Below the pieces are notes generated by a model. It ran no database searches and had not been told where the DNA came from. It worked only from the letters and a program-made list of their open reading frames with translations. Made by a program: the position numbers and the translations under genes. A stretch of 64,000 nt of DNA from an uncultured Methanosarcinales archaeon (lineage in GTDB: Archaea > Nanobdellota > Nanobdellia > Woesearchaeales > CAYPCY01): assembly GCA_964409385.1 (NCBI GenBank), contig CAYPCY010000001.1:106546-170545 (forward strand), written 5' to 3'. Positions 5,584 to 26,000 of the stretch are shown here, piece by piece (the stretch's first letter is position 1; each line of letters opens with the position of its first letter).

Positions 5584-6531
5584 ATGAAAAAAGGTCAAGT
5601 TGCTACAGAATTCTTAACTACTTACGGTTGGGCTATAATGCTTATTTTATTAGCAATGAGCGTATTGTTTTATTTTGGTTTCTTTGATATTGATGTTTTT
5701 ATTGAGGATTCTTGTTTTTTTGGTCAGAATTTTGGAGAGTGTGATGAATTTACTAGAGTTGGAGACAAAATTTTTATCAAATTAACTAATAATGGACTCC
5801 AAAACTTGACTTTTCATGCTTGTAATGTTTCTGTTCAGGATTGTGAGACTTCTTGTTCTTTTGATGAAGAAGATTTTGCTATTGAGAGAGTTTGGGAACC
5901 TTATACTCAAAAAGTGTTGAGTTTTTCCTGTCCTGCCTTGTTAGAAGATATAGATTCAAATATTGAATTAACATTCAGTCTTTCTGACAGTGATAGAATA
6001 CACTCTTTAAAAGGAAAACTTATTAGTTCTATGAAAAAACAAGATGATATTTATAACGAGAATGATATTCTAGGATGTACTACTCCTACCGCGTCTAACT
6101 ATGATCCTGAGGCTACTGTTGATGACGGTAGTTGTGAATATTTACCATTTATTAATTCATTCAGCATTAATGATGTTAGTGATCAGTTAGAGTTTTATTT
6201 TCCTGAAGGAACTCCTTTAAATTTTGAATTTGTTCTTTATGATCATTATCCTTCCGAGAATATGGAAGCTTGGTTTACTGGTCCTTTAGCTAATTTAGGA
6301 TCTCTTAATATTCCTAATATATGTATTTCTCATAGCGACTCTCTTAATACTTATTCTTGTGGTGGTGAATTTAATTGCCCAGGTGATGAACCTTGTCAAT
6401 TTACATTAACAATTTCTAACGTTCCTGGCTTGTCAGAAGGAGAATATGAGTATGATATAATGCTTACTCAACAACCTGGTACTACAGAATTTACTGATTT
6501 AGCTTTTAACATTAATTTTTATGACCCTTAG
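5584..6531 (+). CDS. archaeal type IV pilin-like protein with a class III (prepilin-type) signal peptide and a Cys-rich extracellular domain
   Basis: The N-terminus MKKGQVATEFLTTYGWAIMLILLAMSV matches the class III signal peptide pattern (KG-Q-x-x-x-E-F/Y-L followed by a hydrophobic helix). The mature part is Cys-rich and contains a GCTTPTASNYDPEATVDDGSCEY motif. It ends at a single TAG. Confidence 0.7.
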   Translation: MKKGQVATEFLTTYGWAIMLILLAMSVLFYFGFFDIDVFIEDSCFFGQNFGECDEFTRVGDKIFIKLTNNGLQNLTFHACNVSVQDCETSCSFDEEDFAIERVWEPYTQKVLSFSCPALLEDIDSNIELTFSLSDSDRIHSLKGKLISSMKKQDDIYNENDILGCTTPTASNYDPEATVDDGSCEYLPFINSFSINDVSDQLEFYFPEGTPLNFEFVLYDHYPSENMEAWFTGPLANLGSLNIPNICISHSDSLNTYSCGGEFNCPGDEPCQFTLTISNVPGLSEGEYEYDIMLTQQPGTTEFTDLAFNINFYDP

Positions 6532-7350
6532 GGTTGTACTGATTCTTCCGCTTGTAATTATGACCCTGCTGCTGAGATTGATGATAATAGTTGTGAGAGT
6601 ACGGATACTTATTATTTGGATTGGGATGGAGATAGTTTTGGAGATCCTTATGTTGGTGTTGAAAGTTGTGGTTATCCTGACTGTGATGGTCCTGAAAATG
6701 AAATTGGAAATCCAACTTGTTATTCTAATGCTCATGGAGATTGTGATGATACAACTTCATTAATTCATCCTAATATTATTGAAGATGGTTCTTATTGTTT
6801 TGATGATTTAGATAATGATTGTGATGGTTTTATTGATTTTTGCAGTATTAAGTGTGACGAGGATGACCTTCCTCCTGGAACTTCAATTTCTGGTTGTGGA
6901 ATTAAGGAATCTGCTTGTGATGATGGTCTTGATAATGATAATGATGGTAATATTGACTTGTGCGATTCTGACTGTGGTTGTGGATCTGCTATTAAGATAG
7001 GTTGTGAATGTTATAACTGTGATATAGAACCTTACGCTGTTGGTAGTGTTTATTGTTTTGATCCTGGATCTTCAATTAATCTAGAATTTTCTTTAATTAA
7101 TAGTGATACAGGTTCTCCATTAAGTAATTGTAACAGTGTAGAATTTCATGAGAATTTAGGAACTAATAATGTTTATTATAATTTGCTTTCTCCGGGTTGT
7201 ACTACAACTTTAAATCTTGATGAAGCATTAGGAAATCTTGGCTTGCTTGACATTCCAAGATTCAAAATAGACTATGCTTACTATGATTATAGTAGTGAGG
7301 CAACATGTGGTTTTGATATTTACAATACTGGAAATCCTGAATGTACTTAA
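6532..7350 (+). CDS. Cys/Asp-rich repeat protein carrying 'putative metal-binding motif'-type C-x-D-x-D-N-D-C-D-G repeats; same frame as 5584..6531, separated from it only by one TAG
   Basis: Translation directly after the TAG reads GCTDSSACNYDPAAEIDDNSCES (a repeat of the motif in the upstream ORF), then DCDGPENE...DCDDTTSL...DDLDNDCDGFIDFC...CDDGLDNDNDGNIDLCDSDCGCG. There is no ATG start; the ORF track used TTG at 6616. Confidence 0.55.
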   Translation, partial: GCTDSSACNYDPAAEIDDNSCESTDTYYLDWDGDSFGDPYVGVESCGYPDCDGPENEIGNPTCYSNAHGDCDDTTSLIHPNIIEDGSYCFDDLDNDCDGFIDFCSIKCDEDDLPPGTSISGCGIKESACDDGLDNDNDGNIDLCDSDCGCGSAIKIGCECYNCDIEPYAVGSVYCFDPGSSINLEFSLINSDTGSPLSNCNSVEFHENLGTNNVYYNLLSPGCTTTLNLDEALGNLGLLDIPRFKIDYAYYDYSSEATCGFDIYNTGNPECT

Positions 7351-7662: not shown

Positions 7663-7747
7663 TACTTTAGATAATTAGTTGTTTATTTTAAAGTTAACGA
7701 GAAAAAACATAGCAAGCATTAAATACTCAGTCATAATCTTTATTATT

Positions 7748-8095
7748 ATGAGAGCGACAATAATTCACAATCCTAAATGTGGAACTTCTAGGAAAGTTTT
7801 GGAAATATTAAGGGAAAATAAGATTTATGCTAGTATTATTAATTATTTGGAAGAACCTCTTTCCATGGATGAACTTAAGGGATTATTGTCTAAATTAGAA
7901 ATGTCTGCTGATGATATTGTTAGGAAGAAGGAAAAAGAGGCGTCATTAATTAAGCCTGGCATGTCTGAGAATGAAAAACTTCAAATTATTCACGATAATC
8001 CCATCCTTATTGAAAGGCCTATTGTAATAACGCGTAAGCATGCTAAGATCTGTAGACCTAAAGAACTTGTTCTTGAATTAATCAAACAAGGATAA
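7748..8095 (+). CDS. ArsC/Spx-family protein (arsenate reductase-like thioredoxin-fold)
   Basis: From the internal ATG: MRATIIHNPKCGTSRKVLEILREN...IINYLEEPLS..EL..LLSKL....DIVRKKEKEA......SENEKLQIIHDNPILIERPIVI. This shows the family's N-terminal Cys-x-x-S/T-R motif and the C-terminal LIeRPIV motif. The ORF-track start at 7679 adds an unlikely hydrophobic leader. Confidence 0.65.
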   Translation: MRATIIHNPKCGTSRKVLEILRENKIYASIINYLEEPLSMDELKGLLSKLEMSADDIVRKKEKEASLIKPGMSENEKLQIIHDNPILIERPIVITRKHAKICRPKELVLELIKQG

Positions 8096-8926
8096 TAAAT
8101 CTTTCTTTGAAGATTTTTTTGAATATTCTATATTGCTATTCAATAAGTAATTTTCAATTTCTTCTTTTGAATTTTTAGATGTTGGTTTTATTATTCTTGG
8201 TTTTATAACTTCTGGAGTTTCTAAACTTTTTACATCGTCAAAGTTCACTTTTTCTCTTCCGTTAATAATTGCATTCCTGCAAGAGTCTTCACAATTAGCT
8301 AATACTGCTCTTGGATTTCTGTCAAGATCATAGATTGCTTGTGTCATTTCTTCATTTAATATCTCATGACCTTCAAGTCTTCCTTGAATTAGTTCTACTG
8401 CTTGTTGTGGAGTTAGTTCTCCTAGTTTGTAAGTGTTTTCTTCAACTAAATCTCTTAAGTCTTCAGTTAGTAATACTTCTTTTTTAGAAACTAGTACTAT
8501 TGATTTAAAGTATCCTTGGTCGTACAAGTCTACTATTTTCTCCATTTCGCCAGGTTTTAAGTCTTGAGCTTCATCAAGTAGTAATATTGCATCTCTTGAT
8601 TTTATATTTATTAGTCTTTTGAAGAAGGAGTTTCTTCCGATTAATAATTTATTGAATGGTATTGTTTTTTCTGTAGTATTGCAACTATAATAAATTATTT
8701 TTCCTTCTCCTAAATAATCATTGATTATTGTTTTTAGTGTTGTTGTCTTTCCACTTCCATACTCGCCTTTTAGTAGTATTAACTGTCCTGATTCTATTTT
8801 ATCAAGAATTTCTTGGTTAACTTTTTCTTGGCCTATCATATCAGTAGCTCTTGGCTTCATACTAAATGGATTTTCTTCAAATCCTAATTCCTCATACCAT
8901 GTTTCTTCCGTCATTTTAATTTTCAA
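8078..8926 (-). CDS. ExeA/GspA-like AAA+ ATPase (AAA_22 type)
   Basis: The N-terminus YEELGFEENPFSMKPRATDMIG...ILLKGEYGSGKTTTLKTI reproduces the ExeA signature (hFGL-x-x-x-PF, then a Walker A ~45 aa later). A Walker B-like LLLDEAQDL follows. Confidence 0.6.
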   Translation of the reverse strand: MKIKMTEETWYEELGFEENPFSMKPRATDMIGQEKVNQEILDKIESGQLILLKGEYGSGKTTTLKTIINDYLGEGKIIYYSCNTTEKTIPFNKLLIGRNSFFKRLINIKSRDAILLLDEAQDLKPGEMEKIVDLYDQGYFKSIVLVSKKEVLLTEDLRDLVEENTYKLGELTPQQAVELIQGRLEGHEILNEEMTQAIYDLDRNPRAVLANCEDSCRNAIINGREKVNFDDVKSLETPEVIKPRIIKPTSKNSKEEIENYLLNSNIEYSKKSSKKDLLSLFD

Positions 8927-9791
8927 ATATTGCCTCGCATCCTATGCATTGGTCATTTTCTATTTCCACTTTAGTTCCACATTCTACACAGTAAGTGTCA
9001 CATTTTGGACATAACCATTCTTCCTTTATATTTTCTAGTTTTGTTTTGCAAGCATTACATAATAGGACTCCATTGGGATATTCTACATGTTGCTTGTGCA
9101 AGATCAAATCTAATTCTTTCTTGGATAATTCTTTTCCTTTTGAAATTCTTTTTTCCATATAATTACTTAATTTCATGAAAAAATCTTTTGTTGAATTTGA
9201 TGTTTTGAAAATTTCGCTTAATTCTTTTTCATTTATATGCTCTTCATATTCTGAAAATTTGTCTTTTAAAATTTCTTGTGTTTGTTTAAAGTTCAGTTTG
9301 GGAACTGTTACTATTCTATTTCCTATCCTATCTTTTAAACTTCCAGAAATTTTTGCGTTTTCATAATCATGTGTTGTTAAGACTGCTGATTTTATGTATC
9401 CTTGATCAAAATAGAATTTTATTCTTTCACAGTTTTTTCTTGTTAGTTTATTAACATCATCAAGAAGTAATACCCTGTTTTTCGGAGTATTTCCAGTTAG
9501 TCTTTTTAAAAATCCGTATTTTTTTCTTAGAAGATCTTCAATGTTTAGTCTTTTACTAACATCTGAAGCATTTACATAAATTATTTTTCCTCTGAAATTA
9601 TCTATTATTCCTTTTAGTAATTGTGTCTTTCCAGTTCCTTTATGTCCTTGTAAGACCACTAGACTTCCAGCTTTAACTCTGTAAAGTAAGTCTTCAAATT
9701 CTTTATCAAAGAATTTCGTTTCACTATCACTCCTTAAGGGTTCTAATCCTAAAGGGTTATCAAAAAAGCCTAAATCCTCAAACCACTCCAT
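8916..9791 (-). CDS. ExeA/GspA-like AAA+ ATPase paralogue with a C-terminal double zinc-ribbon
   Basis: MEWFEDLGFFDNPLGLEPL...VVLQGHKGTGKTQLLKGI, then LLLDDVNKL (Walker B). The C-terminus CNACKTK..CPKCDTYCVECGTK...CIGCE gives four CxxC pairs. It overlaps the downstream paralogue by 11 nt. Confidence 0.6.
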   Translation of the reverse strand: MEWFEDLGFFDNPLGLEPLRSDSETKFFDKEFEDLLYRVKAGSLVVLQGHKGTGKTQLLKGIIDNFRGKIIYVNASDVSKRLNIEDLLRKKYGFLKRLTGNTPKNRVLLLDDVNKLTRKNCERIKFYFDQGYIKSAVLTTHDYENAKISGSLKDRIGNRIVTVPKLNFKQTQEILKDKFSEYEEHINEKELSEIFKTSNSTKDFFMKLSNYMEKRISKGKELSKKELDLILHKQHVEYPNGVLLCNACKTKLENIKEEWLCPKCDTYCVECGTKVEIENDQCIGCEAIFEN

Positions 9792-9928
9792 CTTGCAAGT
9801 AAGAATTTACTAGGGATTTTTAAACCTTTTGTTTCTTAAGAGTGGTTTTTTTGTATTATTACTTTAGGATGGAAAGTTTCCAGTTATTCATAACAAGTTT
9901 TTTAAATAATCAACGCCATACTATTTTT

Positions 9929-10060
9929 ATGGAAACAATTACAATTCCTAAAAAACAATTTGATGAACTAAAATCTTCAGAATCAAATATTAATCTCTTA
10001 AAACAATTAAAGGAAAGCTTGAAAGATATTAAAGAAGGAAGAATAAAAAGAGTGAGATAA
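9929..10060 (+). CDS. small hypothetical protein (43 aa from the internal ATG), convergent with the RelE/ParE-like gene
   Basis: METITIPKKQFDELKSSESNINLLKQLKESLKDIKEGRIKRVR. Its stop abuts the toxin's stop. It is not recognisably an antitoxin. Confidence 0.25.
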   Translation: METITIPKKQFDELKSSESNINLLKQLKESLKDIKEGRIKRVR

Positions 10061-10375
10061 TTATCTATTCATTAAATTTTCAAGTTCTTCTTTGAAAAGA
10101 GTTGAAAACATTCTTACATTATTTATTGTGTTTTGTTGATTTTTCTTTTCGCTAATTCCCACCATTATCACTGAGCACAATTTCTCATGTATTAAATAAT
10201 AAATTCTATATTTTCCAAATCTTTTTTCTCTAAAATTTAAAGGTCCTAGAACTTTTCCAGATTTTGGATTTAGTTTTAATTGTAGTTCTATTTTTTCTAT
10301 CCTTTCTCTTAGCTTCTTTTCACATTTCTTGAATTCTTTTTCAAATCTGAATGATCTATAAACTTTAAAAATCAT
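10061..10375 (-). CDS. RelE/ParE-family type II toxin-like protein (no co-directional antitoxin ORF found)
   Basis: ...KKCEKKLRERIEKIELQLKLNPKSGKVLGPL...RFGKYRIYYLIHEKLCSVIMVGISEKKNQ matches the ParE/RelE pattern (l..nP..G..L.g.l....R.G.YRiiY.i.......V.il.i.hRk). Confidence 0.6.
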   Translation of the reverse strand: MIFKVYRSFRFEKEFKKCEKKLRERIEKIELQLKLNPKSGKVLGPLNFREKRFGKYRIYYLIHEKLCSVIMVGISEKKNQQNTINNVRMFSTLFKEELENLMNR

Positions 10376-10458: not shown

Positions 10459-11091
10459 ATGACCGTAATATTAATTTCTGGACCTCAAGCTTCCGGAAAG
10501 GGGACTCAAGCAGAACTTTTGGAGAAAAGACTTGGTTTTAAGCATGTTTCTATAGGTAAAATTTTAAGGGATAAAACTAAAAAAAATGATGTTTTAGGAA
10601 GACAAATTAAGGAATTAATTGATAAGGGCGAATTTGTTCCTAATGAAATAACTAATGAGATTGCATTAGAGTATATTAATAATAATGAGAAGATCATTCT
10701 TGATGGCTATCCTAGAAATAAGGAACAGGCAGAATTCTTGTCTAGAGAGTCAGATATTGATTTGATGATTGTTTTAGAAATTTTTGAGTCTTTAACTATT
10801 CAAAGAATTTCTAACAGGAGGGAATGTCCATCTTGTGGAAATGTTTATAATTTAATCACTAAACCTCCTAAAAATAATAAAACGTGCGATTGCGGGACTA
10901 ATTTGGTTTTAAGAAAGGACGATACACAAGAATATATTAAGAAAAGATTATATTCTTATCATAAAAGAACAGAACCTGTTATTAATATTTTTAAGAAGAG
11001 GAATAAGGTTGTATTCTTTGATGGGAGTAAAGATATTGAAGAAATTTATAAGGATGTTCTTTCTATTTTGAAGAAGAAGGAGCTCATTTAA
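10459..11091 (+). CDS. adk: adenylate kinase (long form with Zn-binding LID)
   Basis: P-loop GPQASGKGTQAELL, AMP-binding region, and LID with CPSCG...CDCG zinc knuckle. Confidence 0.9.
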   Translation: MTVILISGPQASGKGTQAELLEKRLGFKHVSIGKILRDKTKKNDVLGRQIKELIDKGEFVPNEITNEIALEYINNNEKIILDGYPRNKEQAEFLSRESDIDLMIVLEIFESLTIQRISNRRECPSCGNVYNLITKPPKNNKTCDCGTNLVLRKDDTQEYIKKRLYSYHKRTEPVINIFKKRNKVVFFDGSKDIEEIYKDVLSILKKKELI

Positions 11092-14000
11092 AGTTTGCTA
11101 GTTCTTTCTTTATTTTTTCTATTTCTTTATCGTCTTTTATTTTTCTCGCATTCTTTAAATCATTAGCTAAAGAATCAAGTCTTAATTTAGTTATGTCTTT
11201 TGTTTTCTCGGAATTTTTTAATTCTTCAATTTCATCTTCTAATGTTTTTTCTTTTTTAGTTTCTTCCTTTACAACTTTCTTTTCTTCAGTTAACACTTTC
11301 TTTTCTGCAGTCCATCCGTGTACTATTGAAAATTCTGTTTCTAATTGTTCTTTCTGTTCTGGAGTTAGTGTGTCTGTATCTATAGAAACTAATATTATTC
11401 CGTCTTTGGTGCTTATTTTATCTTTCATATGATCTAGTAAGTATATTGCCCTATCAAAACTTGTATTTTTCATTATGAACAAGAATGAATCAAAGAATAC
11501 TACTGGATTGTTTTCTTTTAATATATAGTCTACAAATGCCCTGTATATTTTATCAATATCTGTCGGACTTAATGTTTCTTTTCCTTGCTCTAGTGTTATC
11601 CAATAACTCTTATCTTGAGGAATGTCTTTAAGTAATAATTCAGGATTTTCTCTTGTGAATGAAAGTATTTTTCTTCCTTCCATATTACTCTTTACTAGTT
11701 TTAACGAAATTGTGTTTTTCTTTTCTTCAACAATATATAAATTTCTAGATCTTAATTTTCTTTCTAATAATCTAGGATTGAAAATTTCATGGCCTGTTTT
11801 CTTCAAATATTCTTCTCTTTCTTTCTTAGCCTGTGCTAATTCTTTAATTAATTCTTCATCTTCTACTAGTTCTAATGGTTTTTTCTTGACTGTTTTATTA
11901 ATTCCTTTCCATAATGCTTCAACTCTTGGAAGTACACTTTCTAAATAGATTTGTACCATGTTGAAATTTCCTGATTTTAATTTTTCAGTTGCTAGATTTA
12001 CTTCTATCCTAACATCGAAAACATCTACTTTTTCTTTTTCTAATTCTTCAAGTTGATACTCTAAATCTTCTATTATTGTATTATATTTTGAATAATTTGC
12101 TAATGCTTGATCATCTAACCTTTCTATATTATGTAGTAGTGGTCTGAAGTTTACAAAGTATGCTCTTCCTTTGTTATAATCCGCATTCTCTATCATTCCA
12201 GTTCCAGTTCCTGCTTTTATTAAACTCTGCATTATATCAATTCCATATTTTGTTTTTATTCTTTCTAGATCTCCTTCATCTTTAGTTTTCATTTGTATTT
12301 CTGTACTTATGTTTGCTTTTATTTCTCCTATAAAATCACTTAATACTTGACTTATTAGTACTAGACCAACTCCCCATTTCCTAAATTCTCTCGCTCCCCT
12401 TTCTATTTGTAAGAATCCTGCACCACTACCTCCAAATTTAGGTAGTAGTCTGTGAACTTCGTCATATATCATTAATAGTTTTAGTTCTGGACTTTCTGGT
12501 AGGTTTTCTCTGAAGACTTGTCTTATGGTGTTTGCTACGAATAAGTCTACATCTTTTTGACTTAACTTGTTAATTACAAAAACATGAATTTCTCCTGGCT
12601 TCATGAATTTTTTAATACTTACTTTTTGTCTTGGGTTTTCTACTACATGAACATTACCATTAAATGCTCTTGCTTCATTTCTTTTCATTTGGAATTTATG
12701 GTATAATTTCAGCATTGGTTTATTTTCTGATTTTCTTAAGAATCCTGTCCATTGTGCTGTTGGATCAAATACTATAACTGCAGTATTATGCTTTAGTGCT
12801 TCTTCTGCAATATCTTGTGCGGCTACTGTTTTTCCGCCTCCAGTAGCTCCTGCTACTATAGTGTGTGTTTTCAATTTTTCTAATTCTACAAATGTTCTAA
12901 TACTGGTTTCTGCAACATTTCCTAAGAATGCTACTTTTCCTTCTGGCTTTGGTAATGCACTATAGTCAATTTGTATTTTATACCTTGACTTTTTCCTTTT
13001 CCTATACTCATAAAATTCGAACATTCCAAAGTTTAATCCTAAGAATATTATTATTCCTAGAATCACCCATACTGGAATTATTCCTGCAATCCTATAATTA
13101 TACCAGTAATCAGATACTAATACTGTGGCTAGACTAGTAGCTGTCATGTTAAATCCTGTTCCTGAAGGATAAGTTGCTGTTCCTCTTAATACATACCTTC
13201 CTTTAATTAAATCTTCAGGAATTTTTAATGTCTTTATAACGGAGATTGTTGTCTCTATAGCTATTGCTTCTTCCGCTGCTGCTAAGACTTCAAGAGTAGA
13301 TTGGTCTACAAGTTCAAGCAGCAGCTGAACATCCACTCTCTTGGACATCCCTAGGTTATAGACATCCGCCTGAATTTTCAAGGTTTTTCCGGGGGGAATC
13401 CTATCCTGTAATGGAGTTATTTTCAGATCGAGAAGCTTCTCCCTCAATTCCAAAACCCGAATTTCTACAGGGATTGAATTAACGATTGCATCTGCAAGCA
13501 TTAATACAAGGTCTCCTTGATACATTCTTGGTTTGGTCTCGTAGGGTATTGCTATTCTGATCTCTACGTCTCCTTTTTCCCCAGGCGGGATTTCTATTAT
13601 TTGATTCACTACCGTTATGAAATCAGTGATTTCTCCTGATAGTTGCACAACTAGTGCTGCTGCTTCTTGTAGACCGTTTACTATTCCTACTTTCGTATCT
13701 GTTATTTCACCAGGGTAGAGTTGTCGGGATATCCTTGCGGTATCCACTGTAAACTCACTGGTTTTTTGCATATACTTTTGTAGGAGTTCTTCTATTGCTG
13801 TGAGCGTTAAATTTCCCATGTCTGCGACTTGGGTTGAAGTTGAAGCTGTTGAAGATGTTGATACTAATGTTAGAACTTGTGTTACATTTTGGAATGCAGC
13901 ACAATCTTCTGGACTATTTTGGAAACTTTCTCCAAGACTTATTGTACATATTCCGTCTCCTATTACAAATCCTGCCGCTGCATGTTCTGTTAGTACATAT

Positions 14001-17000
14001 GCTGAGAATCCTGTTGTGTTTGCAGTGATTTTATTATTGGTTTGGTCTAATGTTGTATTTATTGAAGTCCATCCTGATTGACAAGCATCATCTATTGATG
14101 ACCAGTTTGTACATTTTGCAACTACTAGTCTTGAAGGATCGTTAACTAGTGAAGTGTCATAATCGAATTCTATACTTATATTATTGGTTAAACTAATATT
14201 TCCTGCTATTCCTGCATGGTTTATTCCTGTTCCTGCTATTGAGAATGCTGTAGTGTTTAGTTTTTCTAGTATGAAATTTTCATTTAATTGTGAAGCATTT
14301 ACATTTATGAAATTCACTATGAAATTGTTGAAGTTGAAACTTGTTTTTGAGAATGTCCTGTCTGGAATTGTTGCGGTATAATCACCGTCAGAATCTAAGG
14401 TTATGTTTGTTCCTTTAGTATCTCCAGTCCATCTGTAAAGGGTTAATTCTGCATTTGATGAAGTTCCATTAAAGTCTTTTACACTTCCTGTTATACTTCT
14501 TGTATTGAAGACTTCAAATAATTCTGATGTGTTTCTTGTATTTCCTAAACTGTCTACTAAATTGTAGCTTATGTTATAATCGTTTTCTGTTGTTATTGTT
14601 AGTGTATTTGTTAGTAGACTTCCAGATACTGAATTTGTTACTTCCCTTTCAGTATATGGAGATACTGTCTCGTAAACTTTTGCATTTGTTGATGATCCTA
14701 TTCCTGTCTCGTCTGTTAAGTAGGTTTTTAGCGTTATTGATCCTGGCGTGAATGAGTCTGTATAGTTTACTATTGTTGGTCCAAAAACGTCAAGGTATGT
14801 TACTGTACTATAATCGTAAGCGTGACTAGTGTCATATACTGCTTTTAATGTGAAGTTTTTAGTTAAATCTCCTGTTGTTATTGTTGGCGCGGTGCATTGT
14901 ACCGTTTCTGAAGTTCCTGATGTTACTTGGCAAGTACTTCCGTCAATGTATACTTTGAAACTTTCCAAGGTTCCACTTCCTTCTGTTGCAGTGGTTATGT
15001 TTATTGTATCTCCTGATTTTATTCCTGTGGATGGTGAGATAGTTAATATTTTAGTGTGTGAAGTAACATTAATGTATGCTGCGAAGTTTTTATCATAACT
15101 CAAGTTTATTGCGTAAGTGTAAAAATTTTTTGTGTCTGGTGCTGTATAATTTATGCTTATTAGGTTGGTAGTATTACTTGATACTGTTGTATTAGTTGGT
15201 AATTCTAGGTTTGTTGTTATGTTAAGGAATAATTCTGTATTTCCAATATTTGTTATGTTTAGATATCCTATAACTCCTTGAACTTGACTTCCTACAGTTA
15301 CTCTATCATTCGTTAATGATGCATTGTATGATTTGTCTTCTGGTACTGTTACGGTTAGTAAGACTTGTTGGTCTGCATCGTTGCTTGTTATTTTTAATGA
15401 TCCTATGTATGTTCCTGCAGGGTAATGTTTTGGCACTGTAATATTTACATCCATGTATCTTGTTGATCCTGCTGGTATTTGTGTGTAGTAGATAGTGTCT
15501 ATTGTGAAATTATTACATACTGTTCCTGAAACACATGTTGCTAATACTCCAACAAGTGGAAATGTTCCAGTACTTTGTACTGTTAATTGTTTTGAGACTG
15601 TTTGTGAATGATTTATTGTGTATGTTAAAGTTGTAGTGTCTAGTGTTAATTCTGCAAGGCTTGATTCTGGCTGTTGTGCTAGTACGAATGATCTATTTCC
15701 GTTTGCGAAAGTGTCAAATGTTGATGTTATTCTTTTGTTCACCTTGTCTATTGTTGTTGTTAGTGCGTTCCAGTCTTGTAAACAGTTTTTGCCTGTTACA
15801 TTCCATGAATTACACTGGTATATTCTTAGGTCGTCTTCTATTGCTATATCGCTCATGAATGAGTTGTATTCTTTTATTACTGTTCCATTACTTGAGAAAT
15901 TATTTTCGAATGATATTCCTGTTATTGATCCTTGTAGTTGTCCTGCTGTTTCACTTCCTAATAAAGTATCTACTGTTAGAAAATTTGATGGTACTTTTCT
16001 AAAGTCTGCCTCGTTTATTGTAAAGTTAAATCCTTCTATTTGTATTTTTGTGATGTATTGTCTTTTTGGAATTGTGAAATTATAATGTCCTGTGGAGTTT
16101 GTTGAATTTTCTAGATAGAAGTTTTTTACAGTATTATTGATTGAAAAATTTGCTAGTAGTGGATTGTTGTTTTGGTCTATTAATTGTCCTTGGAATGTCC
16201 CGTTTTGTCTAACTTCAAAATATCCAGTTCCTGTTCCTGTATTATTTTCTGAATCTGTCGCGTATACTGTTACTTGGAATAGTCCTACTCCATCGTATAC
16301 TGTGGATGCTATTGTTCCTGTATAAATATCAGTTCCTGCTGCTGATAAGTCATCATTATGTGTTCCTCCCCCAAATAATTCTACACTGAAGTTTACTGTG
16401 GTTATTGCATTATTATCTGTTGCATTTACTGTAATGTTAATGTCTGTTCCTGAATCAACATCTGTTAGGTTTATTAGGTTTACTACTGGAACTGTTACAT
16501 CTTTGTAGAATACTGCATTTGTTGTTTCTTTAGTTACTGTAACGTCCGATCCTGAAATGGTATAATTAGCTATTATCTTTAGTGTGTGGTTTACTGCGTC
16601 TGTTGTTGATGGCGCGTAACATTCTAGAGTTGTATTGCTTGTAGTATCGTCAGTAGTGAATATTGTGCATTCAGTATTGTTTATGTATGCCTTATAAGTC
16701 GTATTTGTTGAAATATGATTTGTGTCTGTCCATGTTAGTTTTACTGTTGTATTTATTTGATCGCCTGAAACTACTTTTTCAGGAGCTTCTATTTTTAGAA
16801 TGTTTAGTATTAGTTTTAAGACTCTGAAATTGAAGTTTATTGTTTCATTAACTCCTGTTTCTGTATTATTCACAAATATTGTTCCATTGTAGAGTGTATT
16901 ATCATCTGGAGTTGTATAGTTTAGTTGTATACTTCTTGATTCTTGTTTTTGTATTGTTAATGAAGTGTTTAGATTGGTTGTTATTTGAGATACGTTTCCT

Positions 17001-20000
17001 GAAATATTAGTTGTGAAGTTTAATTCAGTATTTCCTAAATTGTTAATTATTAAATCTGTTATTGTTCCTGTTTCATTTGCTTGTCTGGAAACATTTAATT
17101 CATTAGTTGATAAATTCCATGAATTGTCTGTTAGCACATTTGCTGATGAACTTTCTGTCTTGTCATTAACATTATTTGCTCCTGTGAAGTTTATGTTGTA
17201 GGAGTAACTTCCTGGAGTTTGCCCTAGTGTTGTATTAAATCTTACGAATATTGTTTGGGTTTGTCCTTTTGTTATTTCTGTTAATGATGTTGTGAAGTCT
17301 AGACTGTTTGAGTAGACAGTATTATTTTTTGATAGTTCTATTGTTGTATTTTCTGGTGGTGAATCTACAGTTATTAATAATTGAGTATTATCATTTCCTA
17401 ATGCTGTTATTGTAAAGTTTGTAATGTTTAATTGTCCGTGAGTTACATTATATACTGTTGAGAAGTTGTTTATTGTGTAGTAATGGTTTTCTTCAATTAG
17501 TAGTGTTCCTGTGGTTGATGATTCCGAACCATTAGTTCCGTCAGTATTCGTAAAGTTTGCAATGAATCTTACTCCGTTAGTGTATAGTCCAACACTCTTT
17601 TTTGGAATTTCTATTGTTAAGTTTGTTTGTTTTGTTGCTCCTACACTAATATTCCCTAGGAAATTTCCTGTCACATTCCAGTCTTCAATAGTTCCTGTTA
17701 GATTAACATTATAAGCTGTTGCATATCCTGAATTTGTAATATTTACTGGGAATGTTATGTTCTCTCCCCATAAGTTAGTTACATTGTTTGCATTAACTTG
17801 TGATGATGCAAAGCTTAATGTTGTGTTTCCATGAACCATGAAGTATTCTGTGGTATTACCATTCTTTCCTGAAGTATCGTATACTTGGAAGTATACACTA
17901 TGATTTCCTGTCTTGTTTGTTTCATAGGTTAGATTGAATAATTCTGCATCTTCATATCCTGATGATTCCGGCCAGTTTACAAATTGTCCATAATAATTTG
18001 TTCCGTTAATTGTCCAGTTTCTTTCTGTTTCATTAACATTCACATCATCTTGGACTATTGCTTCAAAAGTTATATTCTTGCCTAGTTCAACATTACTTGT
18101 TTCTACCCCATTAACTAGTTTTTTGAAGCTAGTAATTACTGGTTCAGTATCTGTAACGTTGAAGAACATGAATGCAATATTTGAGGATGGAGATGCTGTA
18201 TTGTTTGAAATGTTTATTTGAACTCCTGATTCGTAATTCGATATATATCCATTAGGGTCTAAAACCCATACTTTTAGATTATAAGTTGAATTTTTATCTA
18301 CATAAACACTTGTTGGATTATATAATTCTAAAGATTCAGTATGATTTTCAGTAATACAATTAATAGAACTACATGAGTCCAAACCAGGAATATTATCATA
18401 TGAAATTGTGAAATTTAAAGGAATATTACCAATATTTTTTATTGTTAGATTTGCTAAGTTTCCTTCTTGATTTAGATTGAATACTTTTGATTGATTATAT
18501 GCTGGTGTGAAATACCATGTGGAGTTTGTAGGTACTTCTATTGATATATTTACTATTTGTGAATCTACATTATCAGTACTTACATTAATAATGCTCGAAT
18601 AATTTCCTGGACTTAAGAATTCTGGCAATGTAATATTTATTGGTATTACTTGCTTATTATTTTCTGTCAGGTTAAATATTGAATTGTTAAAACTTACCCA
18701 TGATTCGTTCAGTGTTTGTTCAATAAATGTTGTGTTCACATTTACTAATTTTGCATTTCCAACACTACTAATATTCATTAAATACTCAATGCTTGAGTTT
18801 CTTGATTGGACTGCTGAAATATTATGTGTTGTCATTAATGGATTAATTATTATTGTTATGTTTATGCTATCATTAAGTCCTTCAGTTGTTGTTATGTTAA
18901 TAAAGCCAGTATAAGTTCCATTAGTGAAATTTGTTACTGTAACATTAACTTCTAAGTCTGCGGCAAATCCGTCTTGTAATGGGTCCCATTCATTAAGGGT
19001 GGGATTCCAAGATGTAAAAGAACTGTTGAACTTAAACCAGGAACTATTAATTTCAGTAACATTTAGTTTTACATGATTTAAATCTTTATTTCCTGTACTG
19101 TTTACAATATAATTGAATATTTTGCTTGAACTAATATTAGTATTATGTAATAATGTGTGATTGTCTAGTTCCATTACTGGATTTCCAGTTATTGTTAGTG
19201 AAGAAGTTGTTATTATGTAAGCTTCAGTAGTGTCATTATTAGTCCAGTTAGCCCCCCATGTGAAAGTGTAGGAGAATACTTGAGCAGAATCACTTATTGT
19301 AATATTCATTCTAACAGTACAATTTTTATTAGGATATACGATTGAATCACAATTATCAAGTCTTTGTACAGAATCAATAATATTAGGAGTGTCTGAATCA
19401 TATATTAACGAATCATGCATTAATCCAAAACCAGTATTGTTTAATGTTGCATTAACTATGTAATTATAAGTACTTCCTGAAGAATAATCTGTTATTGTAA
19501 CGTCAGGAACAATTAATTCTGCTGTTGTTACAGCATCGTAAATTGTTAAGTTTACATTATTGCTTACTGTTGTATTTCTTGTATCATTTGCTGTGAAGTT
19601 TACTAGTCTTGTTCCGTAAAAGTTTGTGTCTGGTGTTATTGTTATTACTTTTGTAATATTATTTATGTTATAGCTTAAGTTAGTTGCGGGTGTTATAGTA
19701 TAATTAATATCATCCTCGTCCAAGTCTGAGAAATAATCTGATAGGGTGAGTGTTAAATCATTATTTTCAAACCAGGATTGGTTTGGTATTGTAGTATCTT
19801 GACTTGGTGGAGTGTTTAATACTGTAATATTCTGTTCTCTTATTACTGAAATGTTTTCTGTATCATTAGCGTATGTTCTTACTCTTATTGTATCATGAGC
19901 GTCTGTTATTTGAATAGTGTAATTGTTTCTTGAATAATCTGATCCAGTTCCTGTTATGTAAAGATTATCGATTGTGAATCCGTCTACTGTAGTATCTCCA

Positions 20001-23000
20001 GTAATTGCTGCATCATCATATTTGGTTATTGCCCAACCGTATGCTTTACCATCTCCGCCGCATTGATTATTTGCATTTTGTGAGATATTATATGTTTTGT
20101 AATACCAAACTCCATTATTTGAGGCTGATATATCTATATTTTCGACTAGTTTGTATTTATTATCACTGCATTTTACAAATACTCCGTCACAATCAGTAAT
20201 ATTGTTTATATTATCGTATGAAGCAGTGCATGAGTTTGATTCTTCTCCATGATCTTTTATATAAAAACTTAATTTAATATCATTATAGTCACTTATTGAA
20301 TTATTATTCCAGTAAAGAATATTATGATGATACTCATTAGGAGTACCAGCCATGTCCATTCTTAATTGGTAATTTCCTTTGAAAGGTTCTCCACAATATT
20401 TACCACCTGACTGACAACTTTCATTATCTACAATACCTACAACACCTGTATAATTAGATAAATTGCTAAATTGTGAATTCATCACTCCAGATTCAAATCC
20501 AGTACTGAATATTACATTCAACTCTTCAGAATCATTCAGATTATAAAACTTGAAAATGAAGTTGAAACTATCCCCATCTGCATCTGTAGTGTTTGCCGAA
20601 GCATTCAGTGTTTGTAATACGTAAATTGGTTCTGTCAGGTTTAATGTTGGCTGTTCTGGTGGTTTGTTCAGTATTGTTATTGTTTCATTCATCCAATCTC
20701 CCGAATAAGTATCGTTTGCCATGCATGAAAATGTCCAGTTTTGATACTTTTTGGCAATGTTTGCAGTTAGATTCTGAACATTAATTTCAACTGCTGTCGA
20801 GAATGAACTTCTACTTCCTGAACTGTAAGTTACTGATTCATTATACCATTTCCAATTATAAGTTATCAAATCACTATCTGGATCTGCACTCGTATTACAA
20901 TAACCTAATAAAATATCATCAGTATATGCTGTTGTTGGAGTTATTCTTACAGTTGTAACGTTTGGAATGTCTAACCATTTGAAACTTGTTGAGTTTTTCC
21001 AATAGCTCTCTACTGTAGTATTTGCATTACATGAGAAAGTCCAATTTTTGTGTATTGAAGAATCCGTAGTTACATTATTAATATTAACTTCTATTCCTTC
21101 AGTGTATGAACTTGTTGTTCCTGACTCGTTAAGAACACCATCCGCATACCATTTCCAAGAGTAGGATATGGGATTTCCTTCTGGTTCTGTTGCGTTACAG
21201 TATCCCTTAAGAATTTTTTGAGAATAAGTGGTTGGTATTATTTCTACTGTTCTAACTATTGGGAATGATGTGTTAAAGAAAGAACCCGCATCTCCTTCTT
21301 CCGCATTTCCAGATGCTACATATCCTCCAGCAGTATCAATAGTTCCTGTAAAACTATAATTATTTGAATAAGAAATCAGTATTCTTCCTCCTGCCCCTCC
21401 TCCTCCATCAAAACTTGTAGAACCACTAGCTCCTCCCTTAACACTAATAAGTCCAGCGCCCGTAATTAAACTAGTCTTAATACTTATTCCGCCACCACTT
21501 CCTCCGCCACCATAAGTTCCCAAAGAACTCCCACCACCGCTACAAGTAGTACTACTAAGATACGATGAACCTCCACCTATAGAAGTTATATTTCCTGTTA
21601 AATTTAGAGTATTTTTAACTTCTAATATTAATAAACCCCCTCCATCACCACCATCACCACTATTCTCGTCATTACAAGTTCCAAAACAAGATGATGCTCC
21701 TCCACTTCCTAAGAAAGTAACATTAGTTTCTGAACCGTAAGGTTCTCCCCTGTATGAGGTGGGACAACTCCATCTATTTCCTGAAAAATTTCCATATTCA
21801 CATCTTCCTCCAAACCCTCCAAAACCACCTCCTGACCCTCCTGAACACCTGCTGGGTAAACTATATTGTTCTCCTCCTCCATCATCAGATCCATTAAGCA
21901 CTCCTCTCCCATCATCCTCAATAGTACCTCCATAGTATCCTTTCCCATCAATATTTATTTCTCCTGAAGAAGTAATTGTAAGATTTTCTGCAGTAATATC
22001 TAACCAGTATGTCTTATTTCCATCTTTTGCTTCATTAATTGATAATCCATCATTTGAAGAATGAGTTAAACTTCCTGTTATTGTCAAGTCTTGTAGAACT
22101 TCTAATTTTCCATTATAAGTTATACTTCCATTCACTATTGCATCATTATTAACTATTAATGTTCCATTATTATTTACAGTTCCTGTAGATAGATTTAACG
22201 AATTAGTTGTTATAGTATTTCCTTCCTGAATATTTAATGTTCCACTACTTAATAATATACTATTAAGAGTAACATTGTCAGAGAGTGTTTCAGTAAGTCC
22301 ATCTTCAATTACCAGATTAGGCGACCTAAAACTCCCTTTAAGTCCATCACCCGCACTGCCCGGTCCTGTTCCTCCTGAAACATTTGTTTGCCCCGTAAAA
22401 CCCGAAATATTAACATCAAGATTAACTTTAATTCTTCCACCTCCACCACCACCACCATTATGACTACCTTCTATATCTTCACCCCCATCCCCTCCTACTG
22501 AAGTAATATTTCCTATACCTCCAAGAATACTGGTATTAATTGAAATTGTCCCTCCAGACCCACCTCCAGAACCATCAAACAGGTAGGAAGAAGTTCCTGT
22601 TAAACCTTCAGTTCCATCTGCTAAAATCTGTCCATTAATAGTTAAATTGTCAAGAATATTTAATATTACTAATCCTCCTCCAATTCCAGTATTATTTTCG
22701 CTTTGATTTCTTCCATCTCCAGAGCCACCTCCAGAACCTAAATCTGCAGGATTGGAAACACTTCCATAAGTAATCCCCTCATTATTTTCATCATAATATC
22801 CTTCTCCTCCTTGTCCACCATAACCACCACCACCACCACCTTCACCTATTGATTCTCCACCACCACCAAGACCATAACCAGTTCCATTATCTTCTGAATG
22901 ATCCCCTCCAGAATATCCCTTTCCAGAAACATTAATTAAACCTCCAGATTCAATTGTTAAGTTAGTAGCATTAATTTCTAGCCAATAATTTTTCACACTA

Positions 23001-26000
23001 TTAAAAGCATCTATTCTGTTCATATCTGAATTAGTTGAGTGAGTTAAACTACCACCAGACTGAACTATTAAATTATTAAATTCATAACTCCCATTCCATA
23101 TTTTTGCAGTAGTAATATAACAAGTAGTAAATTGATTTCCTGAATCACAACTGTTTTCATTAATAGTAATATTATTAGATTCGATAGAATAAACATCTTC
23201 AGAACCAATGCTTGCTGTGGAAACAACAGCCCACATTTCTGCTCTATCAGATTCTGAACTTGATAATTCTAAATTTTTATTTTGAAATAATAAGCTTATT
23301 TGCTCTGGTGATAATGCTCTTTTGTAGATCATTACTTCGTCTAATGTTCCGTTGAAGTAACTTCCTGTACTATTACTTCCTATTGTCATATTTTCTGAAG
23401 TTGGAATTAAATTTGATGAAGTTGTTGATCCTTGATATGTTCCATCTACATAAAGACTTAGGTTGGAATTTGTGAACGTTCCTGTTATTAAATGCCAGTT
23501 TTTATCGTTTAAATTTCCTGAATAAGTAACATTATCATATCCTAATCTTATTTCTCCTCCATTAATAGTGTTCAAATTCAAACTACTTACATCCTGAGAA
23601 GTTAGATTAATATTATCTATTGCTCGTCCATCACTAGAGCAAGGAAAATCGTCTTTTTGCGAAAATTTAATAGAGAAAGAAGAATTGGTTGTTCCTCCAC
23701 ATTGCTCAGTGATGTTATTTGTTAAATCAAAATCATAATTTGTATAAGTATTATCATTTGCAAGATCTGTTATTTTATACCAATAACTTCCATCACATGT
23801 AAAAAATACTCCGTCACAATTTGCAAACAATCCTGAATGACTAGAACAACTATCTTCTTCATCATCTCCAGAATCATCAATATGATAAAAATTAAAAGTT
23901 AAATTTGATATTCCTGCTAAAGAGAAGTTTGTTTTTACAGTATTATTAACTAGATTACTGTTTGATGTACTTCTTAATATTAGATGATTTGAACCTGCAT
24001 ATGGACTACCACAATCAGAATTAGAAGAAACATCAACATCACCATATGAATTGCTTGAACTTACAGTCCAATTTGATGAAATACTTCCTGATTCCCAGTC
24101 TTCAAAGAACTTTAGAGAATTAATTTCTTCTTTTCCAATCTTCATTATTACTCCTTCACTACTAGCGTTTATCCATGCTGATAAAGTAATGTCATTAGAT
24201 AAATTAGAAACATTCTCTAATTCAATATAATCATCAACTCCATCAAAAATATAAGCTCCTCCCTTGTAACCAGAAGAAGTCCAATTAGGACTATTTGATA
24301 AACTTCCACTTCCTAATGTTCCATTATTTCCATAGCTTGAATAATCCTTAACTATAGTTTCATAATCAGTATCGAAAGGATAATTAAGAACTGCTATTGA
24401 ATTACCATCAATTCTCCAGTCTGTAATGTTAGTGTACGCTAATCCTAAAGGATTATATGTTTCGTTAATATGAGATGTTAAATTATCAGTTGTAAAATTA
24501 TATGCTGATGTTGAATTCAGTAAGACAGTAAAATTTAATGCTTGTGTAACACTAATAATATTAGATAATGCGCTTGCTTCTTGGTCAGTATCTGTAGAAG
24601 TTACCATTACAGTCCAGTTCTCTTCAGTATTAATTTCTTCACCAATTATTTTTTCTAGAGAATGATTATTAAAACCTGCAAGGTATAACTCATTAATCTG
24701 ATCTGCAGACAATATTCTATCATAAACACTTATTTCATCTATACTTCCATTCCATTCAGATGATCCAATATTATCATCTGATCTTCCTATTTGAATATTA
24801 TTTTGAGGAACAGATAATCCACTTGATGTTGTTTTCGAACTCATATATTCTTTATTTCCATTTAGAAATAATGATCCAATTCCAGTATTATTTTTTAGTG
24901 TTAATGCAAAATGATACCACGTTCCTGCAGATAACGGTGTTGTTGAAAATGTAGTTATAGAACCTGTACCATCCTCTAATCTCATTGATGCCTTAATTTT
25001 TACTATTCCTGTATTATTCAATATTTGCAAATACCATCCTTTAAGTAGTGATGTGTTATATTGTTCTATGATAAAATTATCAGATGCTCCGACACTACCT
25101 TCATAATTCATCCAACCAACAATAGTTAATTCTGTTGTCAGATTTAAACTTTCATTATATGGTATTGTTAAGTAATCATCAATTCCATCAAAAGAATAAC
25201 ATCCTCCCACTTTACAATTATCAGTCCATACTGGTCCAGTCACTGTTCCATCATTATCATAAGTGGAATAATCCTTAATACTACTTGAAGAATTAGTGTC
25301 GAATGGCATGTTCAATACGGCTATTGAAGTTCCATTAATTCTCCAATCTGTAATATTAATTATTGACTTATCATTAGTATGTGAAGAATTTATTTTTACA
25401 GTAAGATTATCAACACTAGTATTATAACTACTTGAAGAATTCAAGAATACACTATTAACAACAGGAATATTTAATTTTACTTGTACAGTATTACTTAATA
25501 ATTGAGCTTCATTCTCTGTATCTGTAGCAGTTAGCATAACACTCCAATTCTCTTCAGCCCTAGTTTCATTATGAACTATCTTCTCTAAAGAATGATTATT
25601 AAAGCCAGCAAGATAAATCTCATTAATTTGATCAGTGGTTAATACTCTATTAAAAAATAAGAATTTGTCTATCAAACCTTCAAACTGATATCCTATTTTT
25701 ACATCTGCTATAGGATTTATAGTGGCATCATTACCATCACAATACTCAAAAGAAATAGTAGTTAGTTGACCATCAAAATATACGTTATTACCATCACATC
25801 CTACTGTAATATGTGGTAATTCAGTAGTTACTGCTATAAAATGCCAATCAGTATCATTATTTGTTGAATGTACTGAATACTGCCCACCAACTCCAGTACC
25901 ATCGTAAGAATCAATAACTATATTATCAGTTTCAATTTGTATACTATATCTGTCTGAACTTCCTGTATAGTGATACCATGCATATCCTACATTTGCTTCA

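Follow-up and report, generated by a model that had tools for sequence, protein, structure and literature searches.

The 64-kb stretch of archaeal DNA analysed here, taken from contig CAYPCY010000001.1 and hereafter called the window, carries on its minus strand two adjacent genes, A and B, which lie head to tail in this order of transcription and encode AAA+ paralogues (29% identity over 221 aligned aa, E=4e-27). A preliminary description of this DNA had presented them as tandem, tightly coupled AAA+ paralogues, and this is borne out here as well as among the relatives described below. The same description gave an overlap of 11 nt between the two genes; the close coupling stands, but the overlap arises solely from a TTG start of B (282 aa; open reading frame (ORF) 8078–8926). 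The ATG of B at 8914, 1 nt past the TAA of A, is the likelier start, because it is used in the 278-aa NCBI/ENA gene call P0001 and gives an N-terminus (MTEETWYEELGF) that lines up with those of A (MEWFEDLGF) and of the homologues; the genes abut under both starts. The two genes and their features are as follows.

9817–9824, minus strand: TATA-like box (TTTAAAAA), ~29 nt upstream of the ATG of A, read directly from the sequence
8916–9791, minus strand: gene A, 291 aa, ATG start, as given in the ORF list
9738–9791, minus strand: N-terminal family signature of A (MEWFEDLGFFDNPLGLEP), with W3, N12 and P13 invariant (alignment A3); the motif is kept in both clades of the family (see below)
9624–9647, minus strand: Walker A motif of A, GHKGTGKT (aa 49–56), with G52, G54 and K55 invariant
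9456–9473, minus strand: degenerate Walker B motif of A, VLLLDD (aa 107–112), with Asp in place of the catalytic Glu
9327–9329, minus strand: Arg155 of A (SLKDRIG), at the SRC/arginine-finger position just before β5; the strand E160–163 comes next in the model
8937–9059, minus strand: putative double zinc ribbon of A (aa 245–285), four CxxC pairs arranged as CNAC-12-CPKC-3-CVEC-10-CIGC
8078–8914, minus strand: gene B, 278 aa from the ATG
8744–8767, minus strand: Walker A motif of B, GEYGSGKT (aa 50–57), with G53, G55 and K56 invariant
8564–8587, minus strand: intact Walker B motif of B, ILLLDEAQ (aa 110–117), with Asp-Glu
8309–8311, minus strand: sensor-2 Arg202 of B (NPR)
8081–8182, minus strand: C-terminal helix-extended-helix (HeH/SAP-like) tail of B (aa 245–278), a weak assignment

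In both proteins, the Walker A motif follows ~42 residues after an N-terminal W-x-x-x-L-G-F-x-x-N-P motif, whose W, N and P do not vary among 18 homologues and are conserved across ~160 family members, far beyond chance. The N-terminal motif noted earlier (LGF-x-x-NPF in both proteins) is thus genuine, except that A reads NPL rather than NPF. The TATA-like box suggests that A and B have an archaeal promoter of their own, which would yield a leaderless or short-leader transcript; a scan for sigma-70 promoters and terminators, which is unsuited to an archaeon, stayed at chance level and is uninformative. The G+C content of the window is ~30%, and the named relatives of its proteins all come from metagenome-assembled genomes (MAGs) of Woesearchaeota or Nanoarchaeota, which identifies the DNA as that of a DPANN archaeon.

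The C-terminal tails of A and B differ. The four CxxC pairs of the double zinc ribbon, which had been assigned to the second gene, are carried by the first; the module itself is conserved, and sits on the upstream gene in 14 related loci. It scores 17.8 bits on Pfam DZR (PF12773), below the cut-off of 27.3, and the AlphaFold2 (AF2) model of A has short β strands in this region. The tail of B matches phrog_12526 (E=3.8e-6, aa 242–276) and Pfam HeH only at E=0.15, and forms two helices in the AF2 model (residues 249–259 and 270–277), with a predicted local distance difference test (pLDDT) score of ~80–85. Both tails are possible nucleic-acid-binding elements. A PIP-box reading of the C-terminus of B (KKDLLSLFD) was also considered and is ruled out by the match to the phage HeH-like profile and by the two helices; in addition, the C-terminal peptides of relatives (..AEKYY, ..DEQYY, ..PEYKVFVFEN) violate the Q-x-x-L-x-x-F-F spacing.

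A scan of species-representative genomes with a B-clade alignment yielded 80 loci, which together with loci found earlier make a set of 82 loci with 78 pairs. All 80 scanned loci belong to MAGs of DPANN archaea, and 75 of them contain two adjacent family genes on the same strand. The genes of A and B type are tightly coupled: the members of every one of the 78 pairs lie no more than 12 nt apart, and 57 pairs overlap, 39 of them by exactly 4 nt. The upstream genes of the pairs (U, to which A belongs) find their best match outside the locus in another U gene (78/78), and the downstream genes (D, to which B belongs) in another D gene (77/78) or, once single-gene versions of the family are counted as well, in one of the two (78/78). 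Mean identity between U and D inside one locus is 31%, versus 42% within each clade, and the U–U and D–D identity matrices are correlated (r=0.83). As judged from these comparisons, U and D are two ancient orthologous clades that have been co-inherited.

The catalytic motifs of AAA+ proteins are divided between the two clades. The Walker B motif reads Asp-Glu in all 77 aligned D genes and Asp-Asn or Asp-Asp in ~85% of U genes. An arginine at the SRC/arginine-finger position, just before β5, is present in 78 of 78 U genes and in 4 of 77 D genes. The sensor-2 arginine shows the reverse distribution, being found in 77 of 77 D genes and in 4 of 78 U genes, where Lys usually takes its place. Walker A is intact in nearly all U genes. 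The window obeys this rule: LLLDD, SLKD-R155-IG and a sensor-2 Lys are found in A, and LLLDEAQ and NP-R202 in B. Five single-gene loci (L047, L048, L055, L063, and L069) encode proteins of 281–301 aa that have all three motifs (5/5 for each: Asp-Glu, the finger arginine and the sensor-2 arginine) and stand behind a tail-bearing membrane protein of 227–251 aa; these versions may preserve the homo-oligomeric state that predated the duplication. Complementary losses of this kind are the pattern expected when a homo-oligomer is subfunctionalised into an obligate heteromer in which the U-to-D interface alone is catalytic.

It is therefore likely that A and B make up a heteromeric ATP switch with one composite site. 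In the mechanism proposed, A and B would assemble, either as an obligate heterodimer or as a hetero-oligomer of alternating subunits, into a switch that depends on ATP. B would bind and hydrolyze ATP by means of its Walker A motif, its Walker B Asp-Glu and its sensor-2 arginine, and A would donate Arg155 to the B site as a trans-acting arginine finger. A itself probably binds ATP without hydrolyzing it; the Asp-Asp of its Walker B motif and its lack of a sensor-2 arginine predict a hydrolysis-deficient subunit.

In 64 of 77 pairs, exactly one member carries a C-terminal extension, which is either a double zinc ribbon (always on U) or a long, flexible K/E-rich linker that ends in a short acidic-aromatic peptide (such as ..AEKYY, ..EELYY, ..DEQYY, or ..PEYKVFVFEN). 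The majority of the family lacks both the zinc ribbon and the HeH tail. In addition, a 368-aa database protein (P0062) reads as the C-terminal half of a U protein fused in frame to a complete D protein; either the fusion of U and D is natural, or two gene calls were merged where a contig ends.

Neighbor clustering across the 82 loci identifies the gene directly upstream on the same strand as the sole widely conserved neighbor of the pair. In ~65 of the 82 loci this gene encodes a protein with a characteristic C-terminus (E between 1e-7 and 1e-34 with a hidden Markov model (HMM) of the tail), in which a hydrophobic helix precedes ~45 residues that form a basic helical hairpin; the consensus of the hairpin is ..(R/K)xxPKKYYRKAxxxHKKGExxYxxGDxELAxxYYxEAExYRKKAxELE. 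The positive charges that follow the membrane helix indicate that this tail is cytoplasmic. The partners range from 70 to 2300 aa and fall into three size classes: proteins of 70–90 aa that comprise only the helix and the tail, proteins of 200–300 aa with a signal peptide, and proteins of 400–2300 aa. The large partners are signal-peptide surface proteins built from Big, PKD, cadherin-like, β-helix, or MopE-type modules.

Partner type varies together with the tail type of the ATPase pair. In all eight zinc-ribbon pairs with a recognized partner, the partner is adhesin-like and longer than 300 aa, and in 55 of 56 linker-tail pairs the partner has at most 300 aa. Some contigs contain more than one module. 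Contig CALDOJ010000031.1 carries two full modules ~16 kb apart (L014 and L020), each behind its own adhesin-like gene of ~2000 aa, and locus L080 (99–6032) has two ATPase pairs within 6 kb. That one contig can carry several modules, each with its own adhesin, speaks against a housekeeping role in single copy and favors a cognate link to the surface protein.

A further arrangement is seen at 17 loci, including L030, L033, L035, L036, L039, L043, L045, L058, L059, L071, L073, and L077, where a signal-peptide protein of 258–676 aa, whose core is transglutaminase-like (Pfam, 85.8 bits) and whose C-terminal end is hydrophobic, is encoded directly before the small gene for the membrane helix and tail, ~300 nt upstream of the pair. 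At these loci it looks as if ectodomain and tail are split over two genes.

For the family at large, docking of the switch on the cytoplasmic tail of the upstream surface protein, via the zinc ribbon or the C-terminal peptide, is a serious possibility that falls slightly short of an even chance. In the relatives, a switch seated on the tail would link the surface protein with some intracellular event under the control of ATP. Candidate outputs are the state of the adhesin, its clustering, its turnover, and nucleic-acid handling at the membrane.

Several observations weigh against these proposals. The hairpin has sub-threshold matches to DUF1771 (26.6 bits, cut-off 28.7) and to TPR_2 (18.9 bits). 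The co-variation between ATPase tail type and partner type could reflect shared phylogeny alone. The remaining neighbors are housekeeping genes that vary by locus (RNase P p30, RNase HII, DRG GTPase, and tRNA synthetases) and point to no function for the pair. The docking model is not directly applicable to the window, since neither the window nor its 88% relative (L010) has the tail motif; the six-frame translation of the 64 kb contains no match to the tail HMM (best E=0.44). For the composite site, ~15% of U genes still carry a Walker B Asp-Glu, and B has an arginine two residues ahead of the finger column, which makes B-to-A catalysis conceivable. These last two points, the retention of Walker A in both proteins and the existence of single-gene versions are also what would be expected of two independent homo-oligomeric ATPases that share an operon and have no heteromeric composite site. 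Such an arrangement is improbable, because the motif losses are strictly complementary across the 78 pairs, the single-gene versions keep all the motifs, only one member carries a C-terminal extension in most pairs, and a 4-nt gene overlap occurs in half of them.

The preliminary description had raised the possibility of a joint function of the pair and a giant surface protein encoded nearby. Comparison with the relatives lends this support, in that a membrane-anchored surface protein is encoded directly upstream in most of them, as described above; that partner is absent from the window, where a neighboring gene encodes a surface protein of 5218 aa (11084–26740, minus strand) whose 3′ end lies 1.3 kb upstream of A on the same strand, with an adenylate kinase gene on the opposite strand in between. 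Past its membrane helix, the last ~1000 codons of this gene (11087–14086) encode a HerA/FtsK/TrwB-like P-loop ATPase and a DUF835 domain (DUF87, 35 bits; HerA_C, 30 bits; DUF835, 75.7 bits), so that, by domain content, an ATPase of translocase type is joined here to a giant adhesin-like protein. BLAST searches with the partners of other loci against the window ORFs gave no match, and the ectodomain of the 5218-aa protein is thus non-homologous to those partners. The tail motif being absent from the 64 kb, and the cytoplasmic end of the giant protein differing from the basic hairpin, the canonical membrane anchor has therefore been lost or replaced in the lineage of the window. The window and L010 are also the only loci that combine a zinc ribbon on the first gene with a tail on the second. 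Given the lack of a tail-bearing partner, together with the zinc ribbon on A and the HeH-like tail on B, a possible target of the window copy is nucleic acid, the neighboring 5218-aa protein, or both.

The other neighbors of the pair in the window are of several kinds. An ArsC/Spx-family gene (7679–8095, plus strand; Pfam ArsC, 55.6 bits) is convergent to B, with which it shares 18 nt at the 3′ end; apart from the window, this gene adjoins the pair solely in close relatives. A ParE-like toxin gene (10061–10375, minus strand; Pfam, 28.4 bits) lies upstream of A on the same strand, and is abutted tail to tail by a short ORF of the other strand that looks like an antitoxin gene (METITIPKK..., with its end at 10060; 9842–10375 for the two). 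This convergent layout is unusual for a toxin–antitoxin pair and recurs in L010. Farther away, two Rfam tRNA matches on the minus strand, at 1547–1634 (88 nt) and 1715–1827 (113 nt), are not called by ARAGORN in bacterial mode and are probably intron-containing archaeal tRNAs.

A pilin-like gene (5584–7350, plus strand) has a class III signal-peptide-like start (MKKGQVATEFL...) and no Pfam match. It had been described as adjacent to the pair; it is indeed nearby, but it is convergent to the pair and ~730 nt away, with a 97-aa gene and the ArsC-family gene between them. The reading frame of this gene is interrupted by an in-frame TAG at 6529–6531, after which its Cys-rich ‘GCT..NYDP..DD.SCE’ repeats resume; the public call on identical DNA runs straight through (588 aa), and the 88% relative has an uninterrupted ORF of 606 aa. 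The TAG could reflect a pseudogene, an assembly error, or stop-codon read-through.

This gene, together with the ExeA-type signature, had prompted a proposed link of the pair to secretion or pilus assembly, in which A and B would be ExeA/GspA/MshM-like ATPases and would build a secretion or type IV pilus apparatus with the pilin-like neighbor. The survey of the 82 loci speaks against it: the conserved neighborhoods are of a non-pilus kind, the window and L010 are the only loci with a pilin-like N-terminus at most 8 kb from the pair, the gene being convergent and outside the operon of the pair, and neither GspB/ExeB, a secretin, PilB- or PilC-type genes, nor other MSHA or type IV pilus genes are found as a conserved neighbor. 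The assignment to ExeA has some grounds at the level of profiles. TIGR03015 (ExeA-like) is the best NCBIfam match of B and is found in 8 of 18 family members, the Pfam AAA_22 score of B (32.7 bits) is comparable to that of Escherichia coli GspA itself (32.2 bits), and one 89%-identical homologue bears the JGI label ‘ExeA’ (COG). However, TIGR03015 reaches 28 bits against a cut-off of 324.5, and on AAA_22 (cut-off 27), the profile suggested with the original assignment, B passes whereas A fails (19.4 bits). With the family profile, E. coli K-12 GspA reaches 3.1 bits, and its hhalign probability is 16%, with the P-loop alone aligned; as E. coli GspA lacks the ExeA N-terminal segment, this comparison is a weak test of ExeA proper. 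GspA has C39-like and peptidoglycan-binding domains, whereas Pfam searches of A and B find neither a C39-like domain nor a peptidoglycan-binding domain (PF01471), and no membrane segment is present; their AF2 models are fully soluble. Clamp-loader, ORC/Cdc6, DnaA, MuB, and RarA models match the family equally well or better. A role as ExeA-type assembly ATPases is extremely unlikely for A and B.

The position of A and B among AAA+ proteins is instead one between several known families. AAA_14 (PF13173, cut-off 27) is the sole curated model passed by both A (32.1 bits) and B (36.6 bits). No NCBIfam model comes near its cut-off for either protein; two models of the RFC large subunit reach 29.7 bits (cut-off 280) and 19 bits (cut-off 502), and Pfam ORC-CDC6-like reaches 14.8 bits against 27. 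Across 18 family members, matches were obtained to AAA_14 (17), AAA_22 (14), PHROG ‘clamp loader’ (13), TIGR03015 (8, as above), PHROG ‘DNA transposition protein’ (6), and Hda (5). Searches of Protein Data Bank (PDB) sequences with A or B singly give matches at the P-loop level only, and the family profile retrieves Aquifex DnaA (36 bits), NLRC4, ORC1, and MgsA, the last over nearly the full length.

The AF2 models (mean pLDDT 85.4 for B and 82.5 for A) contain a five-strand AAA+ core and a lid in both proteins. The top Foldseek matches of B are ORC1/Cdc6 proteins (E ~1e-9), with RFC, RuvB, and MgsA also found; A matches best to RFC (2chg, domains 1–2, E=1.3e-7), followed by ORC1, MuB, the T4 clamp loader, and DnaA. 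These structural matches, which also include the γ subunit and TnsC, have template modelling (TM) scores of 0.4–0.6, and more than 650 AAA+ structures in the PDB match the models at E≤1e-3. A and B thus belong to the AAA+ superfamily, in its clamp-loader/initiator-like branch, and have the full catalytic set only jointly. Neither protein has a winged-helix/Cdc6 C-terminal domain, an RFC collar domain III, or a DnaA domain IV, and the core of the family is only ~230 aa long.

The family comprises at least 256 representative clusters at E<1e-30. In a word-indexed search, scores leap from E≤1e-43 to 3e-6, where bacterial DnaA is the next match; the family is sharply bounded and almost exclusive to DPANN archaea. 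It is about equidistant from clamp loaders, ORC/Cdc6, DnaA, MuB, and ExeA-like ATPases, and appears as a distinct, unnamed family in the clamp-loader/initiator/MuB–ExeA sequence space rather than as orthologues of ExeA. Database names of its members conflict, and include ExeA, orc1/cdc6, EcfA2, ‘AAA family ATPase’, ‘predicted AAA+ ATPase’, and hypothetical protein. No account of the family or of the three-gene module was found in the literature searched.

With such relatives, A and B could also be a soluble DNA-transaction factor, that is, a divergent initiator, a helicase loader, or a clamp-loader-like pair, whose membrane neighbor reflects synteny only. The nearest folds and profiles are all those of DNA-loading AAA+ switches (ORC1/Cdc6, RFC, γ, the T4 clamp loader, DnaA, MuB, TnsC, and RarA), the PHROG ‘clamp loader’ profile is matched by most of the members compared, DnaA is the closest sequence outside the family, and two homologues are named ‘orc1/cdc6 family’ by NCBI. 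The zinc ribbon of A and the HeH-like tail of B would fit such a role, and RNase HII is encoded near the pair in 13 loci and a DHH/RecJ-like protein in 7. The domains that accompany the AAA+ core in these factors are nevertheless missing, as listed above, the specific models remain far under their cut-offs, and the zinc ribbon and HeH tail are absent from most family members. Multiple copies per contig, each behind its own adhesin, argue against a single-copy replication role, and the membrane partner upstream is far more widely conserved than any DNA-metabolism neighbor. A purely soluble role in DNA transactions is accordingly unlikely.

A component of a defense system or mobile element, such as a helper of transposition akin to MuB/TniB/IstB, or an ATPase of the STAND/Abi type that works through a small membrane effector, would account for the PHROG ‘DNA transposition protein’ matches, for weak PADLOC matches to Nhi and AbiO (28 bits), mad8, and BrxF, and for weak nSTAND matches; a ParE-like toxin gene adjoins the pair in the window, and an integrase or DDE transposase is encoded near the pair in a few loci. 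Every one of the supporting matches is weak, the small partner has no PADLOC match, and the large adhesin-like partners would be atypical effectors. The vertical co-inheritance of the genes, their stable synteny with housekeeping genes (RNase P p30 at 20 loci), and the depth of the two orthologous clades likewise make this role very unlikely.

On balance, the overall reading of A and B as subunits of a DPANN-specific AAA+ pair that works as a heteromeric ATP switch, linked in most relatives to a surface protein, is favored, with somewhat less assurance than the heteromeric switch with one composite site taken by itself. DPANN archaea live attached to host cells and have many giant surface proteins. 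It is a speculative and rather unlikely extension of the switch model that the AAA+ pair and the tail-anchored adhesin-like proteins constitute an unrecognized surface machine of DPANN episymbionts, in which the switch would dock on the cytoplasmic tails of giant surface proteins and set their adhesive state from within, or would couple attachment to the host with the uptake or handling of nucleic acid; the latter option is suggested by the zinc-ribbon and HeH additions and by the HerA/FtsK-like ATPase fused to the 5218-aa protein.

The analysis delimits an unnamed AAA+ family that carries inconsistent public labels, and yields a testable subunit model in which two paralogues would share one composite ATP site. 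It also identifies a conserved genetic link of the AAA+ pair to surface proteins with a cytoplasmic tail. Should this link prove physical, the pair would be the first cytoplasmic regulator or motor to be proposed as attached to the adhesins of DPANN archaea; otherwise it remains a clear natural case of subfunctionalisation of AAA+ catalytic residues, for which single-gene versions with all three motifs exist. What is new is a proposed AAA+ hetero-oligomer with a split active site at the level of a whole family, and an undescribed three-gene arrangement; the kind of machine is already known.

Among known systems, AAA_14 (COG1373, ‘predicted AAA+ superfamily ATPase’) is the model that both A and B pass and that nearly all of the members compared match; it is, however, a generic domain model without a known function, and its usual C-terminal DUF4143 is not detected in A or B. 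ExeA/GspA/MshM proteins share with the family the broad AAA_22 neighborhood, at comparably weak scores, and ExeA has a glycine/aromatic-Pro-Phe type N-terminal segment ahead of Walker A, as in the A–B family. A loose association with a small single-pass membrane protein is a further likeness, as GspB is a small bitopic partner of this sort. A and B differ in having none of the transmembrane, peptidoglycan-binding, or C39-like domains and no type II secretion system or MSHA genes, and their host is an archaeon without a secretin.

Orc1/Cdc6 and DnaA provide the top structural matches of B and the best sequence outgroup, respectively, but A and B lack the winged-helix domain and domain IV of these initiators, remain below the ORC-CDC6-like cut-off, and belong to a family with a membrane partner and multiple copies per genome. 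Clamp loaders (RFC, the γ complex with δ′, and T4 gp44/62) are the best folds for A and among the best for B, and the S-x3-R-I sequence before β5, which is confined to the U clade, resembles the SRC motif. Clamp loaders are hetero-oligomers with some non-hydrolyzing subunits, and the principle of a split site is familiar both from them and from ORC. They differ from the A–B family in having the collar domain III and five subunits instead of two; RFC model scores of A and B are a tenth of the cut-offs, and no clamp or polymerase genes are conserved near the loci of the family.

The working principle proposed for A and B is the same as that of Torsin and LAP1/LULL1, in which a hydrolyzing subunit without an arginine finger receives the finger from a degenerate AAA+-like partner within a membrane-associated complex (PMC5425593). 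The likeness is an analogy only, as there is no sequence kinship with A or B. LAP1 and LULL1 bind no nucleotide, whereas A keeps its Walker A motif, and the membrane anchor of the A–B family is a separate, third protein.

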